The position numbers were made by a program, and so were the translations under genes. From the NCBI GenBank assembly GCA_040386495.1, contig JAZKFJ010000016.1, positions 19,142-83,141 of the forward strand: a stretch of DNA of 64,000 bases, in the 5' to 3' direction. Positions 1,900 to 20,504 of the stretch are shown here, in pieces. Origin of the DNA: Pseudomonadota bacterium (GTDB lineage Bacteria > Pseudomonadota > Gammaproteobacteria > Xanthomonadales > Xanthomonadaceae). The notes under the pieces are model-generated. The model searched no databases. It worked only from the letters and a program-made list of their open reading frames with translations, and had not been told where the DNA came from. How positions within the stretch are numbered: the stretch's first letter is position 1; the number at the start of each line of letters is the position of its first letter.

Positions 1900-3441
1900 A
1901 TGAATACCACCGTCATCGCGGCCAACGCCGCCATCATCGCCGCCAACGCCGCGATTACCGCCGCCAACGCCGCCAACGCCGGCAGCAACGACCACAACAC
2001 ACCGACGCCGGATGCGCAGCGCGCCCCGCCCGCCGACGAGACCGCCGAGCTGGCGCCGACGCTCGACCGGCTCAAGGCCGCATGGCGGGCGAAGAAGCCG
2101 GACTATGCGCAGCGGATCAGCGATCTGGAACGCCTGAAGACGGCCTTCAAGGCGCGGATGGGCGAGATGGCGGCGGCGGTGCGCGCCGATTTCGGCCACC
2201 GTTCCGAACACGAGACCCTGCTGGCCGACGGCATGACCGTGATCGCCGAGATCGACCATCTGCGCAGGCACCTGCGCGGCTGGATGCGGCCGACGCGCGC
2301 GAGCGTCGGCGTCCAGCTGTGGCCGGCCAGCGCGCAGATCCGCCACGAGGCGGTGGGCGTGGTCGGGGTGATGGCGCCGTGGAATTACCCGGTGAATCTG
2401 GCGCTGGTGCCGCTGGTCACCGCCATCGCCGCCGGCAATCACGTATTCCTGAAGCCGTCGGAGCACACGCCGCAGACCAGCGCGTGGTTGCAAAAACTGC
2501 TGGCCGATGTGTTCCCCGCAGACCGCGTCGCGGTCGCGCTGGGCGGCGCCGAACTGGGCGCGGCGTTCTCCGGGCTGCCGTTCGATCACCTGGTTTTTAC
2601 AGGTTCCACGGCGGTGGGGCGCAAGGTGATGGCCGCGGCCGCGCCGAATCTCACCCCGCTCACGCTGGAACTCGGCGGCAAATCGCCCGCCATCGTCGCC
2701 GCGGACTTTCCGATCGACCAGGCCGCGGCGCGGTTGGCCAGCGGCAAATGGTTCAACGGCGGCCAGACCTGCATCGCGCCGGACTACATCCTGATCGACG
2801 CCGCGCGCCGCGACGCGCTGGTGGACGCGTTGCGCGCGCAGGTGCATGCGCGCTATGGCGCGGACATGCGCGAGGCGACCGACTACACCCGCGTGGTCAA
2901 CGAAGGCCAGTACCGCCGCCTGCGCGGCTACATCGACGATGCCCGCGCGCGCGGGCTGACGGTGATCGAACTGGCCAGCGTGGACGCCGGCCGCGCCGAA
3001 ACCGAGCGACTGATCCCGCCGACGCTGATCATCGAACCGGGCGACGACAGCAAGGTGATGCAGGACGAGATCTTCGGGCCGATCCTGCCCATCCACGGTT
3101 ACGCGAAGCTGGAAGACGCCTTGGCCTACGTCGAAACCCACGACCGGCCGCTGGCGCTGTATCCCTTCAGCCACGATCGCGGCATCGTCGAAAACATCCT
3201 CTCACGGCTCATCGCCGGCGGCGTCACCGTCAACGACACCCTGCTGCACTTCGCCGCGCACAATCTGCCGTTCGGCGGCATCGGCCCCAGCGGCATGGGC
3301 CAGTACCACGGCCGCGCCGGCTTCGACGCCTTCACCAAGGCGATGCCGGTGCTATGGCAGGCGCGCTTCACCGCGACCGATTTCATCAAGCCGCCGTATC
3401 GCGGTTGGATCGATCGGATAATCCGCTCCCTGACCAAGTAA
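1900..3441 (+). CDS. NAD(P)-dependent aldehyde dehydrogenase, coniferyl-aldehyde dehydrogenase-like
   Basis: ALDH motifs are present: APWNYPVNL, FLKPSEHTP, FTGSTAVGRKV, LELGGKSPAIV, NGGQTCIAPDY and EEIFGPILP-type DEIFGPILP. The N-terminal about 50 aa are low-complexity, so the start is uncertain. Confidence 0.85.
   Translation: MNTTVIAANAAIIAANAAITAANAANAGSNDHNTPTPDAQRAPPADETAELAPTLDRLKAAWRAKKPDYAQRISDLERLKTAFKARMGEMAAAVRADFGHRSEHETLLADGMTVIAEIDHLRRHLRGWMRPTRASVGVQLWPASAQIRHEAVGVVGVMAPWNYPVNLALVPLVTAIAAGNHVFLKPSEHTPQTSAWLQKLLADVFPADRVAVALGGAELGAAFSGLPFDHLVFTGSTAVGRKVMAAAAPNLTPLTLELGGKSPAIVAADFPIDQAAARLASGKWFNGGQTCIAPDYILIDAARRDALVDALRAQVHARYGADMREATDYTRVVNEGQYRRLRGYIDDARARGLTVIELASVDAGRAETERLIPPTLIIEPGDDSKVMQDEIFGPILPIHGYAKLEDALAYVETHDRPLALYPFSHDRGIVENILSRLIAGGVTVNDTLLHFAAHNLPFGGIGPSGMGQYHGRAGFDAFTKAMPVLWQARFTATDFIKPPYRGWIDRIIRSLTK
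1921..1983 (+). repeat. in-frame 21-bp tandem repeat x3 inside the 5' end of the ALDH gene
   Basis: The units are gccaacgccgccatcatcgcc / gccaacgccgcgattaccgcc / gccaacgccgccaacgccggc, encoding ANAAIIA-ANAAITA-ANAANAG. Confidence 0.8.
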
Positions 3442-16264: not shown

Positions 16265-17086
16265 ATGGCCCGCATCATCGCCATCGCCAACCAGAAAGGC
16301 GGGGTCGGCAAGACCACCACCGCGGTCAATCTCGCCGCCGCGCTGGCGCAGGCGCCCAAGCGCGTGCTGCTGGTCGACCTGGACGCCCAGGGCAACGCCA
16401 CCATGGGCAGCGGCGTCGACAAGCGCGAGCTCGCCGGCTCCACCTGCGACGTGATGCTGGAGGAAATGCACGCGGTCGACGTGATCGTGCGCACCGCCGA
16501 AGGCTTCGACCTGCTGCCGGGCAACAACGACCTGACCGCGGCCGAGATCGAGCTGATGGACGAGCCGGGCCGCGAGCAGCGGCTCAAGCGCGCCATCGAA
16601 ACCGTGCGCGACCGCTACGACTTCATCCTGATCGACTGCCCGCCGGCGCTGTCGCTGCTCACGCTGAACGCGCTGACCGCCGCCGACTCGATCCTGGTGC
16701 CGATGCAGTGCGAGTACTACGCGCTGGAAGGCCTCAGCTCGCTGCTGCAGACCATCGACGCGCTGAAGGCCAAGCTCAATCCGGATCTGGAAATCGAAGG
16801 CGTGCTGCGCACCATGTTCGACGTGCGCAACAACCTCGCCAACGCCGTTTCGGCTGACCTCACCGCGCACTTCGGCGACAAGGTCTTCCGCACCATCATC
16901 CCGCGCAACGTGCGCCTGGCCGAGGCGCCCAGCCACGGCCAGAGCATCGTCGGTTACGACAAGGGGTCGCGCGGGGCCATCGCTTATCTCGGGCTGGCCG
17001 GCGAAGTGATCCGCCACCAGCGCGAACGCACGCAACAGGCCGGCGCCGGCGGTGCGAACATCAAGACCCCGGGGATCTCCGCATGA
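16265..17086 (+). CDS. parA: chromosome partitioning ATPase ParA (Soj)
   Basis: The deviant Walker A IAIANQKGGVGKTTTAVNLA is present, along with VLLVDLDAQGNAT and IDCPPAL. Confidence 0.95.
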   Translation: MARIIAIANQKGGVGKTTTAVNLAAALAQAPKRVLLVDLDAQGNATMGSGVDKRELAGSTCDVMLEEMHAVDVIVRTAEGFDLLPGNNDLTAAEIELMDEPGREQRLKRAIETVRDRYDFILIDCPPALSLLTLNALTAADSILVPMQCEYYALEGLSSLLQTIDALKAKLNPDLEIEGVLRTMFDVRNNLANAVSADLTAHFGDKVFRTIIPRNVRLAEAPSHGQSIVGYDKGSRGAIAYLGLAGEVIRHQRERTQQAGAGGANIKTPGISA

Positions 17087-17997
17087 GCACCGTCAAAAAG
17101 CGCGGCCTCGGCCGCGGCCTCGAAGCCCTGCTCGGCCCGAAAGCCGCCGCGGAGGCGCCCGCGCTGGAAGCCACGTCCACCGACACCCTGCGGATGCTGC
17201 CGGTCGATGCCCTGACCCCCGGCAAGTACCAGCCGCGCCGCGCGATGGACCCCGGCAAGCTCACCGAGCTGGCCGAGTCGATCAAGGCGCAGGGCGTGAT
17301 CCAACCCATCGTCGTGCGCGAGATCGCCAAGGACAAGGGCGGCAAGGTCTACGAGATCATCGCCGGCGAACGCCGCTGGCGCGCGTCGCAGCAGGCCGGG
17401 CTGAAGGACATCCCGGTCGTCATCCGCGAAGTCGACGACCGCACCGTGGTCGCGATGGCGCTGATCGAGAACATCCAGCGCGAAGACCTCAACCCGCTGG
17501 AAGAAGCGCAGGCGCTGCAGCGCCTGATCGACGAATTCGACCTCACCCATGCCCAGGCCGCCGAGGCCGTGGGCCGCTCGCGCGCCGCGGTCTCCAACCT
17601 GCTGCGCCTGCTGGAGTTGCCGGCCGATATCCGCACCCTGGTGGAAACCCGCGCGCTGGAAATGGGCCACGCCCGCGCCCTGCTGTCGCTGGCGCCGCAG
17701 GCGGCGATCGCGCTGGCCCGCCAGGCCGCCGAGCTGGGCTGGTCGGTGCGCGAAGTCGAACACCGCGTGCAGCAGTACGCCGCCGGGCAGGTGCCCAGCG
17801 GCACCAAGGCCAAGACCACCAACGGCACCAAGCCCAAACCGCAGGCCGACATCGTCGCCCTCGAACGCGACCTGTCCGAATCGCTGGGCACCGTCGTCAA
17901 CGTCCTGCACGGCCGCGGCGGCAAGGGCCGGCTGGTGATCCATTACACCGATCTGGACACGCTGGAAGGCGTGCTGGAGCGGTTGAAGGCGCGGTGA
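17083..17997 (+). CDS. parB: chromosome partitioning protein ParB (Spo0J)
   Basis: RGLGRGLEALL, YQPRR, GVIQPIVVR, IIAGERRWRA and ENIQREDLNPLEEA are present. The start overlaps the parA stop. Confidence 0.95.
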   Translation: MSTVKKRGLGRGLEALLGPKAAAEAPALEATSTDTLRMLPVDALTPGKYQPRRAMDPGKLTELAESIKAQGVIQPIVVREIAKDKGGKVYEIIAGERRWRASQQAGLKDIPVVIREVDDRTVVAMALIENIQREDLNPLEEAQALQRLIDEFDLTHAQAAEAVGRSRAAVSNLLRLLELPADIRTLVETRALEMGHARALLSLAPQAAIALARQAAELGWSVREVEHRVQQYAAGQVPSGTKAKTTNGTKPKPQADIVALERDLSESLGTVVNVLHGRGGKGRLVIHYTDLDTLEGVLERLKAR

Positions 17998-18779
17998 GTC
18001 AGTCCTACGCCAAGAGACCTCTGACTCGCGAAGAGCGATTGTTCTACCGCGACCGATTGCGCGCCGCGCGCTATGCCGCGTTAGCAGATGCCGAGGGGTT
18101 CGAGCAGGTCTGTTTTGCGGTCGAGGCGTTGGGGATGCGCCTTGTAGACAGACAGGAAGCACTGGGCAAATATCGTGATGCGATCTTGTCGCTGGCATCT
18201 ACAGTCGATTGGCGCAGCGACCCCGTTGAGCGATTTTCCGGGGTATTCACTCGATGCGCCGCATTGTACGAAAAGCTCAGAGTCGCTCGAAATGACGCCA
18301 TGCACACGGGCGCTTACGCAAGGCATGCGACATCCGCAGCTATTGAACTTTGCATTCATCTGGAAGAAGCGCTGATGGCGAACAACGGGAGTGATCTGAA
18401 CTCCGCTGCGGATTACATGGTGCGAGAGGTAGTGGTGGTCGAAGAATGGCATCTCGTAGCGCACGCGAGGCAGATGATGCTCATGCATTCCTTTTCGTTT
18501 CTCCCAATCCGTCTCAATGGGCATTGGAAATTGATTTCGGAAATGTCCGTCGCTCGTTTCCTAAGACAAGACCGTGCGAATCGTTTGGCGATGCCAATAA
18601 TCGATGCTGAACGTATTGAGTCGAGTCTGGTCTGTGACGCAGTAGAAATTCGCTCTGATATGGGAATTTCCGATTTGTATGACGCACCTATCGGAGACCA
18701 CGGTCGTCTCTGGCTGGTCACCGAGATCGACGGCTCGGAGCGGTTGCTCGGAGTATTGACTCCATTCGAGCTGATGTAG
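17994..18779 (+). CDS. hypothetical protein: helical N-domain with HEPN-like RNxxxH motif + tandem CBS-like domains
   Basis: The GTG at 17994 overlaps the parB stop (GTGA), and composition turns AT-richer exactly here. The N-terminal about 130 aa are predicted helical and contain LRVARNDAMHTG. The C-terminal half has two CBS-like repeats: (DYMVREVVVVEE..LPIRLNGHWKLISEMSVARFL; VCDAVEIRSDM..LWLVTEIDGSERLLGVLTPFELM). Confidence 0.55.
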   Translation: MSQSYAKRPLTREERLFYRDRLRAARYAALADAEGFEQVCFAVEALGMRLVDRQEALGKYRDAILSLASTVDWRSDPVERFSGVFTRCAALYEKLRVARNDAMHTGAYARHATSAAIELCIHLEEALMANNGSDLNSAADYMVREVVVVEEWHLVAHARQMMLMHSFSFLPIRLNGHWKLISEMSVARFLRQDRANRLAMPIIDAERIESSLVCDAVEIRSDMGISDLYDAPIGDHGRLWLVTEIDGSERLLGVLTPFELM

Positions 18780-18840
18780 CGATAGCGATCGCGTAGCACG
18801 CTTGTGCTACAGTTCTGCCCGCCGCCGCGATGGAGCCCGC

Positions 18841-19131
18841 ATGCCCACGCCCACCACCACGATCCGCATTCCCGACGAACTGAAGGCGCGACTCGCCCGA
18901 CTGGCCGAGCGGGAAGGCACGTCGACCCACAGCCTGATCCTCGATGCCATCGCCGAGAAGGTCGATGCGCTGGAGCGCCGTCATGCGTTCCATGAAGAGG
19001 CACAGAAACGCTTGGCGCACCTGGAAGAGACCGGCATGGGCATCGAGTGGGCAGACATGAAGCGCTACCTGGATGCACGGATGGCTGGCGAGGATGTTCC
19101 ACCGCCGGCATCGCGACGCATCGGAAGCTGA
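18841..19131 (+). CDS. ribbon-helix-helix (CopG-like) type II antitoxin
   Basis: MPTPTTTIRIPDELKARLARLAEREGTSTHSLILDAIAEKV is a canonical RHH N-terminus. It sits 4 nt upstream of a ParE-like gene. Confidence 0.75.
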   Translation: MPTPTTTIRIPDELKARLARLAEREGTSTHSLILDAIAEKVDALERRHAFHEEAQKRLAHLEETGMGIEWADMKRYLDARMAGEDVPPPASRRIGS

Positions 19132-19135
19132 GTAC

Positions 19136-19426
19136 GTGAGCGCGATCGTTTTAGCGGACGAGGTGGTTCTGGATGTCCAACGCATCCTCGATGACCCGTG
19201 CGAGCACGCGCAGGCGGATCAACGTCCGACCTGCATGATCGATGCGTTCGAGGTGCTCGGCAGCAGCCCACGGATCGGCCAGCCGTCCGCCAACGGATGC
19301 CGCGAGCTGGTCATCGGCCGGGGTCGGCAGGTTTGCGTCGCACTCTATCGTTATGACGAATCGGCGGACATGGTGACGATCCTCGCCATCCGCGCCCAGA
19401 AAGAATCCGGATATCACCTTTTATGA
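19136..19426 (+). CDS. RelE/ParE family type II toxin
   Basis: GTG start at 19136, 96 aa. The C-terminal pattern CRELVIGRGRQVCVALYRYDESADMVTILAIRAQKE is typical of ParE toxins. The stop overlaps the next gene start (ATGA). Confidence 0.7.
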   Translation: MSAIVLADEVVLDVQRILDDPCEHAQADQRPTCMIDAFEVLGSSPRIGQPSANGCRELVIGRGRQVCVALYRYDESADMVTILAIRAQKESGYHLL

Positions 19427-20160
19427 CAAACCCCCACCTTTCCGTCGTCGTCCCCGTGTTCAACGAGCGAGACAACGTGACGCCGTTGATCGACGAAATC
19501 ACCGCCGCGCTGCGCGGCAACGCGCTCCTGAAAGGCGAGGCGTTCGAGATCGTCTATGTCGACGACTGCTCGCGCGACGACACGCTGGATGTGTTGAAAA
19601 AACTCAAGGCCGACGTGCCGGAGCTGCGCGTCATCAGGCACGTCACCCAGAGCGGGCAGAGCACCGCGGTGCGCACCGGCGTGAAGCAGGCGCGCGGTGC
19701 GTGGATCGCCACCCTCGACGGCGACGGCCAGAACGATCCGGCGGATATTCCGAAGCTTTTGGCCGAACGCGAAACCTCTGCCGCCGACGTGAAGCTGTTC
19801 GCCGGCTGGCGCGTGCAGCGCAAGGACACCGGCAGCAAACGCTGGGCGTCGAAACTCGCGAACGCGATCCGCAGCCGCATGCTGCAGGACGCCACGCCCG
19901 ACACCGGCTGCGGGATCAAGCTGTTCGAACGCGAGGCCTTCCTCGACCTGCCGTATTTCAACCACATGCACCGCTATCTGCCCGCGCTGATGCAGCGCGC
20001 CGGCTGGAAGACCGTCAGCGTGCCGGTGAACCACCGCCACCGCGCCAGCGGCGTGTCGAAATACAACAACCTCAACCGCGCGCTGGTCGGCCTGCGCGAC
20101 CTGCGCGGCGTGGCGTGGCTGATCGCGCGCAGCAAGCGCACCGCGGTCGAGGAGCTTTAG
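19423..20160 (+). CDS. family 2 glycosyltransferase (polyprenyl-phosphate glycosyltransferase, ArnC/DPM1-like)
   Basis: LSVVVPVFNERDNV, VYVDDCSRDDT and LDGDGQNDP (DXD) are present. Confidence 0.85.
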   Translation: MTNPHLSVVVPVFNERDNVTPLIDEITAALRGNALLKGEAFEIVYVDDCSRDDTLDVLKKLKADVPELRVIRHVTQSGQSTAVRTGVKQARGAWIATLDGDGQNDPADIPKLLAERETSAADVKLFAGWRVQRKDTGSKRWASKLANAIRSRMLQDATPDTGCGIKLFEREAFLDLPYFNHMHRYLPALMQRAGWKTVSVPVNHRHRASGVSKYNNLNRALVGLRDLRGVAWLIARSKRTAVEEL

Positions 20161-20162
20161 GC

Positions 20163-20504
20163 ATGCCGATCGACATCATGAATGCGCCGATCTCCTGGCT
20201 GGAGTGGACCGGCATCCACATGAGCCCATGGAAGCTGATCGGCCTGACCGGCGCGCTGATGTTCGGCGGCCGCTGGCTGGTGCAGTTCATCGCCAGCAAG
20301 CGCGAAGGCAAGCCGGTGATCCCGCGCCTGTTCTGGTACATGAGCATCGTCGGCAGCCTGATGACGCTGAGCTACTTCATCTTTTCGCAGAAGCAGGATT
20401 CGGTCGGCATCATCCAGAACCTGTTCCCCGCGTTCACCGCCGTCTACAGCCTCTATCTGGACATCAAGCATCGCGGCTGGCATCGCGACCGCAATACGCA
20501 TTGA
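20163..20504 (+). CDS. lipid-A-disaccharide synthase N-terminal domain-containing membrane protein (LAB_N)
   Basis: PWKLIGLTGALMFGGRWLVQFIASKREGKPVIPRLFWYMSIVGSLMTLSYFIFSQKQDSVGIIQN. This small 3-TM protein is the usual partner of the GT2 gene. Confidence 0.8.
   Translation: MPIDIMNAPISWLEWTGIHMSPWKLIGLTGALMFGGRWLVQFIASKREGKPVIPRLFWYMSIVGSLMTLSYFIFSQKQDSVGIIQNLFPAFTAVYSLYLDIKHRGWHRDRNTH

Follow-up and report, generated by a model that had tools for sequence, protein, structure and literature searches.

DS-11, a protein of Escherichia coli (WP_000257686.1, 365 aa), has been validated as a one-protein anti-phage system combining CBS and HEPN domains, and is covered by the model NF053863, 'CBS domain-containing anti-phage protein' (DeWeirdt et al., DefensePredictor, Science 2026; PMC13092281). 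Both domains are needed for phage defence, which is abolished by the substitution Y157A in the CBS part as well as by R330A and H335A in the HEPN part (PMC13092281). Fusions of HEPN and CBS domains, sometimes with an HD domain in addition (alr3009; Pelobacter gi 118580987), had been described by Anantharaman et al. (2013), who proposed for them a ligand-regulated degradation of RNA (PMC3710099). In this work we analyzed a gene encoding a 261-aa protein, hereafter termed gene 1, which is located between parB and a GT2 glycosyltransferase gene in a stretch of 64,000 nucleotides from contig JAZKFJ010000016.1 of a Pseudomonadota bacterium (assembly GCA_040386495.1); the whole of this stretch is referred to as the window. 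A preliminary description of the locus had taken gene 1 for a HEPN RNase gated by a CBS sensor, inserted into the parAB operon together with a toxin–antitoxin (TA) pair, and knew of no characterized example of such a protein. This latter statement is outdated, as DS-11 has been validated and HEPN-CBS fusions had been predicted in 2013.

We consider it slightly better than an even bet that gene 1 encodes a stand-alone sensor-effector in which an RNase of HEPN type is gated by a nucleotide, and that the gene travels as mobile cargo in a slot next to parB. The features on which this reading is based are given below, with coordinates of the window and with the evidence for each in brackets.

16265–17086, plus strand: parA (open reading frame list and translations)
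17083–17997, plus strand: parB, upstream border of the slot (matches to ParB_N, HTH_ParB and ParB_C, E 1.6e-38 to 5e-20)
17994–18779, plus strand: gene 1, 261 aa, GTG start, HEPN-like N-terminal domain followed by a C-terminal CBS pair (open reading frame, homologues, AlphaFold2 model)
17994–18389, plus strand: all-helical N-terminal domain of gene 1, residues 1–132, candidate HEPN RNase (model, fold matches)
18288–18305, plus strand: codons of R99-N-D-A-M-H104, putative catalytic Rx4H motif (conservation, hhalign)
18390–18779, plus strand: CBS pair (Bateman module) of gene 1, residues ~133–261, with the terminal motif G-h-h-T/S-x-F-D/E-h-h (Foldseek, hmmsearch against the PDB)
18793–18810, no strand: palindrome GTAGCACGCTTGTGCTAC, probable operator of the RHH antitoxin and downstream edge of the cargo position (alignment of relatives)
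18841–19131, plus strand: RHH (CopG/RelB-like) antitoxin gene (PF01402, 31.1 bits, E 2e-7)
19136–19426, plus strand: ParE-family toxin gene, divergent allele (identity to positional orthologues that match PF05016)
19423–20160, plus strand: GT2 glycosyltransferase gene, downstream border of the slot (PF00535, 1.5e-29)
20163–20504, plus strand: gene for a LAB_N membrane protein (PF07578, 3.6e-19)

The two halves of the gene 1 protein were analyzed both together and separately. An AlphaFold2 model of the whole protein, built with 110 homologues, reached a predicted local distance difference test score (pLDDT) of 89 and a predicted template modelling score of 0.82. Residues ~133–261 of this model superpose on solved CBS pairs, including MJ0922, CBSX1/2, AcuB, OpuCA and CorB (Foldseek against the PDB: E 2e-5 to 3e-4, template modelling (TM) score on target 0.67–0.77, root-mean-square deviation about 3 Å), and a profile of the family retrieved CBS proteins from the PDB sequences (hmmsearch, E 1e-7). 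The protein ends with G253-V-L-T-P-F-E259-L-M, which is the canonical CBS motif of ribose-binding type, G-h-h-T/S-x-x-D/E. Among 121 representatives of the family sharing at most 50% mutual identity, over which conservation was counted throughout, G253 is kept in 106 and T/S256 in 105, while residue 259 is an aspartate in 85 of them and a glutamate in 24. The expected folding of the C-terminal half as a Bateman module is hence borne out by model and profile, which identify it as a solid CBS pair. The pair would most likely bind an adenosine-type nucleotide. A second string of the type Rx5H, RQMMLMH (residues 159–165; positions 18468–18488), lies within the first CBS motif. R159 of this string is kept in 119 of the 121, and for the string a place in the ligand site is more likely than a nuclease function.

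Residues 1–132 form five to six helices, and this half, predicted beforehand to be helical, reached a pLDDT of 84 when folded alone. It includes the segment LRVARNDAMHTG (residues 96–107), which contains the R-N-x3-H match RNDAMH that had already been pointed out. A loose Rx4-6H string is uninformative alone, because it turned up in 93% of shuffles of the gene 1 protein (2.5 per shuffle on average); strict RNxxxH was found in 1.8% of them. The weight of the motif comes from its conservation across the family: R99 is kept in all 121 representatives, H104 in 120 and N100 in 119. R110 and E124 (121/121 each), G106 and E34 (120/121 each) and E44 (119/121) are kept as well, and R26 also belongs to the invariant charged residues of this domain. 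A homologue from a Deinococcus plasmid, 34% identical to gene 1, has ARNDxxHTGxYAR intact, with R, N and H all kept. The location of the motif, at residues 99–104 of a domain of ~130 residues, matches that in HepT, in which Y104 closes the RX4HXY motif (PMC7641770).

When the N-terminal domain was compared with PDB folds, both chains (A and B) of the HEPN protein 4nqf occupied ranks 1 and 2, and HEPN toxins ranks 13 and 16; the scores are weighed below. By hhalign, a shallow alignment gave nothing against HepT, whereas deeper alignments paired RNDAMH with the catalytic RNxxxH, both in HepT (E 0.038) and in the Swt1-like HEPN family (E 0.046), the motif only being matched. HepT and Swt1, two true HEPN families taken as a control, match each other with shallow alignments at E 0.031. 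Since true HEPN families score only this well between themselves, the result is compatible with a HEPN domain but of low power. On balance, a HEPN-type domain is the likelier identity of the N-terminal half.

For gene 1 we infer RNase activity, a ligand, dimerization and a role in defence, which would act together as follows. The protein would homodimerize through its CBS pairs, and two R-N-x3-H helices would thereby be juxtaposed. Occupancy of the Bateman cleft by a nucleotide would set the geometry of the RNase site, the CBS module holding the RNase off until that occupancy changes, and a shift of the ligand pool during phage infection or another stress would release RNA cleavage and lead to growth arrest. 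The mechanism as a whole is modelled on DS-11 and the CARF-HEPN enzymes.

DS-11 and the gene 1 protein are alike in that a single protein joins a CBS module to an Rx4H motif of HEPN type, in being accessory, in lacking an obligatory partner and in the nucleotide-gated RNase activity proposed for them. They differ in domain order, as CBS precedes HEPN in DS-11 whereas R99 and H104 of gene 1 precede the CBS pair at 133–261, and in size, the gene 1 protein being ~100 aa shorter. Judged by the NF053863 profile, no sequence relationship is detectable outside the sensor half: gene 1 matches the profile with 13.5 bits (cut-off 260; E 0.029), its residues 133–172 falling on profile positions 76–111, that is, on one CBS motif. 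In a search of 400 genomes of the class, the same profile gave only CBS-pair matches below the cut-off. Membership of gene 1 in the DS-11 family was rejected, as its score is far below the cut-off and its domain order is reversed. Besides, defence by DS-11 has been shown experimentally, whereas the gene 1 family is known from sequence. We have somewhat less than even confidence in the further idea that the family was assembled independently of DS-11 and is its counterpart with permuted domains, in which a previously unclassified HEPN clade precedes the CBS pair; it would then be a one-gene, nucleotide-gated RNase defence found as ~830 clusters (50% identity) in Burkholderiales, Lysobacteraceae and beyond, and carried in this genus as one of several cargoes of a TA-anchored slot.

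Other known systems share part of this plan. In CARF-HEPN effectors such as Csm6 and Csx1, which are dimeric, a ligand-binding sensor domain is fused to a HEPN RNase. The same sensor-effector logic is proposed for gene 1, although its sensor is a CBS pair and not a CARF domain, and neither a CRISPR locus nor a cyclic-oligoadenylate synthase is present nearby. The HEPN-CBS(-HD) fusions described in 2013 are similar in that a HEPN RNase would be controlled by a nucleotide-sensing CBS module; by their description, however, they come from recognized HEPN clades and often carry HD, whereas the N-terminal domain of gene 1 matches no Pfam HEPN model. With the HEPN toxin of HepT/MntA (DUF86) and with Swt1-like HEPN (PF18731), gene 1 shares a helical domain of ~120–135 aa that has R-N-x3-H at the same relative position, but there is no similarity beyond the motif and no MNT partner, and the control would be exerted by the fused CBS pair instead of by the AMPylation of HepT/MntA.

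The borders of gene 1 are sharp. The coordinates in the preliminary description, the length of 261 aa and both 4-nt overlaps between stop and start codons proved exact: the parB stop and the GTG start of gene 1 share GTGA (17994–17997), and the TGA of the ParE gene and the ATG of the GT2 gene share ATGA (19423–19426). The junction between ParE and GT2 recurs with an identical 4-nt overlap in two other genomes of the genus, G009 and G025. The fall in base composition that had been noticed at the parB stop was also recovered, G+C decreasing from 0.70–0.74 in parB to 0.51–0.58 in gene 1; it is 0.62–0.64 in the TA pair and 0.66–0.69 in GT2. At that very point (17993–17998), the window DNA loses its similarity to relatives without gene 1, which is 84–97% up to there, and with most of them it is regained at about 18790, at only ~70%. 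The flanks are well conserved over the genus, with 83–99% identity for ParB (full-length matches) and 82–99% for GT2, and the GT2/LAB_N pair named downstream was found as such. Direct repeats were rejected as borders of gene 1: a 10-nt repeat at 17976 and 18737 lies off the true breakpoints and has a length expected by chance.

In a crude scan from parA to LAB_N, consensus promoters were absent, as were terminators in the coding direction; three terminator-like sites were found, all of them on the minus strand and in the number expected from shuffles. Gene 1 is probably co-transcribed with parAB. Its overlap with the parB stop suggests that it is expressed steadily, at a low level, as part of the parAB transcript, which is compatible with an auto-inhibited sensor-effector.

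To describe the slot in the genus, parB and GT2 were located in 43 genomes and the intervening DNA was read; the junction could be assessed in 35 of them, with the contents listed next.

Empty gap between parB and GT2, 34–49 bp: 3 of 35 genomes (G018, G061, G019)
Gap of 198 bp containing a remnant of ParE: 1 of 35 (G015)
RHH-ParE only, 640–684 bp: 18 of 35
Small open reading frame and TA pair: 1 of 35 (G066)
Gene 1 and TA pair: 5 of 35 (G000, G009, G025, G032, G005)
SUFU-family gene and TA pair: 1 of 35 (G004; G004:C478:16000-17600)
S51 peptidase gene without TA pair: 4 of 35 (G036, G031, G023, G007)
S51 gene, NOV_C-domain gene and TA pair: 1 of 35 (G030; G030:C35:14660-17700)
HEC-01 candidate defence pair and antitoxin remnant: 1 of 35 (G034; G034:C27:1550-3920)

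Gene 1 is present in five of the 43 genomes, without exception at the parB–GT2 site, and it is accessory and not universal there, as the preliminary description supposed. Cargo, where found, invariably sits between the parB stop and the palindrome that precedes the antitoxin gene. The insertion at the parB–GT2 junction that had been claimed is supported by the empty junctions in 3 of the 35 genomes; the three genes did not, however, arrive as one insert, RHH-ParE standing alone in 18. The slot, bounded by the parB stop and by the probable operator of the resident TA pair, is an exchangeable cargo site, and gene 1 is an extra, alternative cargo added 5′ of that operator. It favours our reading that the same slot holds, in sister species, HEC-01 (G034) and NOV_C and SUFU-family genes. 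The HEC-01 pair consists of an AAA_21 ATPase and a DUF4276 protein (PADLOC, E 2e-191 and 2e-95). In the four genomes with S51 and no TA pair, the S51 gene encodes a secreted, cyanophycinase-like peptidase and lies on the opposite strand.

The RHH and ParE-family genes had been proposed to form a TA pair, and their sequences support this. The antitoxin gene (stop at 19131) lies directly upstream of the toxin gene (start at 19136). The RHH protein, besides its match to PF01402, reaches E 7.5e-7 with an NCBIfam model of RelB-like antitoxins, below the cut-off of the latter. The ParE-like protein of the window has no Pfam match of its own, PF05016 included; its positional orthologues in G009 and G025, with which it shares 46–51% identity, do match PF05016 (E 4.9e-9 and 5.7e-6, respectively). 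A palindrome, GTAGCAC-N4-GTGCTAC, is located ~30–45 nt 5′ of the RHH start in every RHH gene aligned. In the 13 TA-bearing genomes of the alignment (window, G009, G025, G065, G004, G066, G012, G029, G003, G020, G002, G008 and G027), the arm GTGCTAC is exact in all and the arm GTAGCAC in 12, G066 having GTGACAC, and the surrounding TA DNA is only ~70% identical. Neither the window nor the whole 4.4-Mb genome contains a second copy of the palindrome, which is probably the operator of the RHH antitoxin.

Compared with the window copies, the ParE proteins are 42–54% and the RHH proteins 59–75% identical, while ParB and GT2 of the same genomes are 87–99% and 88–97% identical, respectively. Such hyperdivergence at a fixed site suggests allele replacement or diversifying selection. 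Remnants of the pair were also found, with ParE only in G015 and the antitoxin only in G034. Of five further genera of the family examined, four have RHH homologues that do not adjoin parB, and in the fifth (G857) no parB match was obtained. RHH-ParE is hence a long-standing resident of the slot in the genus that evolves fast or is often replaced, and gene 1 is one of several alternative cargoes. The RHH antitoxin comes first, the toxin follows after 4 nt and a palindromic operator precedes both, an arrangement that is standard for type II TA systems of the ParDE type; the present pair departs from them in occupying a single fixed chromosomal site throughout a genus, in being hyperdivergent and in serving as an anchor for cargo exchange. 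RHH-ParE is a module separate from gene 1, with its own probable operator, and it may keep the slot and its cargo from being lost.

Homologues of gene 1 number more than 700 in a collection clustered at 90%, and 832 clusters were obtained at 50% identity; their present annotations do not go beyond 'hypothetical' or 'CBS domain-containing'. Nearly all are 250–275 aa long and share the same two-domain plan. A few family members (P0181, P0214, P0154 and P0187) have apparent N-terminal extensions of 130–300 aa before the core, made up of DUF6946, DUF429-like or unassigned sequence. Named hosts are mostly Burkholderiales, together with Lysobacteraceae, and copies are found on plasmids of Burkholderia, Cupriavidus, Acidovorax and Deinococcus; none of 50,697 phage records matched the family. 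The protein tree is incongruent with taxonomy, Comamonas for instance standing beside Achromobacter. Together with its low G+C and its sporadic presence in the genus, this identifies gene 1 as a mobile accessory gene.

In 50 homologue loci no conserved partner gene was found, which agrees with a gene that would protect on its own. Neighbouring open reading frames, when clustered, were shared by five loci at most, and RHH-ParE was seen only beside the Lysobacteraceae copies. Genes for MazG-like, PIN7, GGDEF and adenine glycosylase proteins were rejected as partners, as they are lineage-specific and those checked for strand are mostly convergent. Neighbours at most two genes away include MmeI-type (IIG) and type I restriction enzymes, methylases, HmaC, PtuB, AbiH and DUF499. 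A Ralstonia copy has genes of Gabija type near it, an OLD-family ATPase-TOPRIM beside a UvrD helicase, as assigned from Pfam domains only. In the locus of Ralstonia sp. 25C, a DUF4238 gene (2230–3267) lies two genes 5′ of the gene 1 homologue, beside the OLD-TOPRIM/UvrD pair. Plasmid copies have HipA, a PLD-like protein, H-NS and insertion sequence (IS) elements as neighbours. This neighbourhood is that of a mobile conflict gene and not that of a housekeeping gene, and it does not discriminate between host defence and plasmid self-interest.

Several observations weigh against a gated HEPN RNase devoted to defence. The match to 4nqf is non-significant (E 0.6–1.0, probability 0.57, TM 0.42), and generic helical bundles score similarly in that search; the hhalign matches span only 12–19 columns; and no Pfam, NCBIfam or PADLOC model recognizes the N-terminal domain. 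With these three collections gene 1 gave only a sub-threshold CBS match plus noise, a Pfam scan of 40 N-terminal domains of the family returned no HEPN family, and the profile of the domain retrieved coiled-coil noise only from the PDB sequences. The HEPN assignment of the preliminary description stands as to the invariance of R, N and H, whereas the fold, although a HEPN protein ranks first, is weakly supported in view of the fold scores, the profile matches and the extent of the hhalign alignment; taken as a whole, what that description observed was confirmed and its interpretation is partly supported. The same results, the helical bundles and the failure of hidden Markov models to detect a HEPN family, speak for another reading, by which the N-terminal domain would be no nuclease and gene 1 would encode a CBS-regulated binding or regulatory protein, acting for example on transcription or on a partner enzyme, in which R, N and H would serve to bind a ligand or a partner; the invariant R26, E34, E44, R110 and E124 could then form a binding surface. 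We regard this as unlikely, given that strict RNxxxH is rare by chance and yet invariant, that in two HEPN families it is the catalytic motif with which it aligns, and that an accessory, low-G+C and horizontally moved gene is distributed unlike a housekeeping regulator.

Other observations also weigh against the favoured reading. The GTGA overlap with parB implies that a potential toxin would be steadily expressed, a known defence gene lies within two genes at only a minority of loci, and many homologues are found among plasmid backbone or establishment genes (SSB, ProQ/FinO, H-NS, TrfA, RepB) and not in recognizable defence islands. Gene 1 might serve mobile elements instead of the host, for instance by helping plasmids to establish, by excluding competitors or by counteracting defence, and a regulated RNase activity would still be possible in that case. 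The copies on Burkholderia, Cupriavidus and Acidovorax plasmids agree with such a benefit, as do those lying in long same-strand strings of small unknown genes by the backbone genes just named and by error-prone polymerase genes, and so does the incongruent protein tree. Against it stand the absence of the family from the phage records, the chromosomal location in the genus, where a candidate defence system can occupy the slot too, and the fact that DS-11, the sole characterized CBS+HEPN protein, acts in host defence; we judge a benefit to mobile elements rather improbable. Less probable still is that RHH-ParE has gene 1 as its third component, be it a regulator, a second toxin held by RHH or a stabilizer, the three genes making up a functional unit. 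Gene 1 does lie directly 5′ of RHH-ParE and on the same strand in five of the five genomes of the genus that carry it, but the distribution largely refutes this possibility: RHH-ParE occurs without gene 1 in 18 genomes, accompanies only Lysobacteraceae copies in a family with no neighbour common to more than five of 50 loci, and has unrelated cargo at the same upstream position in other genomes. Moreover, the TA allele of G025 is close to that of G020, which has no gene 1, and the pair retains its own probable operator 3′ of gene 1. A nucleotide-gated HEPN-type RNase carried as cargo hence continues to be the reading that we favour.

Should the N-terminal domain prove to be an active HEPN RNase, CBS sensors and HEPN effectors would have been joined at least twice, in both domain orders, and the case for adenosine-nucleotide sensing as a general gate of suicide RNases would become stronger. 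Gene 1 would also provide a compact candidate of ~260 aa, a size handy for ligand identification in this class of defence proteins. As for the slot itself, the succession of parB stop, cargo, operator, RHH-ParE and GT2 makes up a small and clean natural system in which the exchange of conflict genes beside a core operon can be followed.

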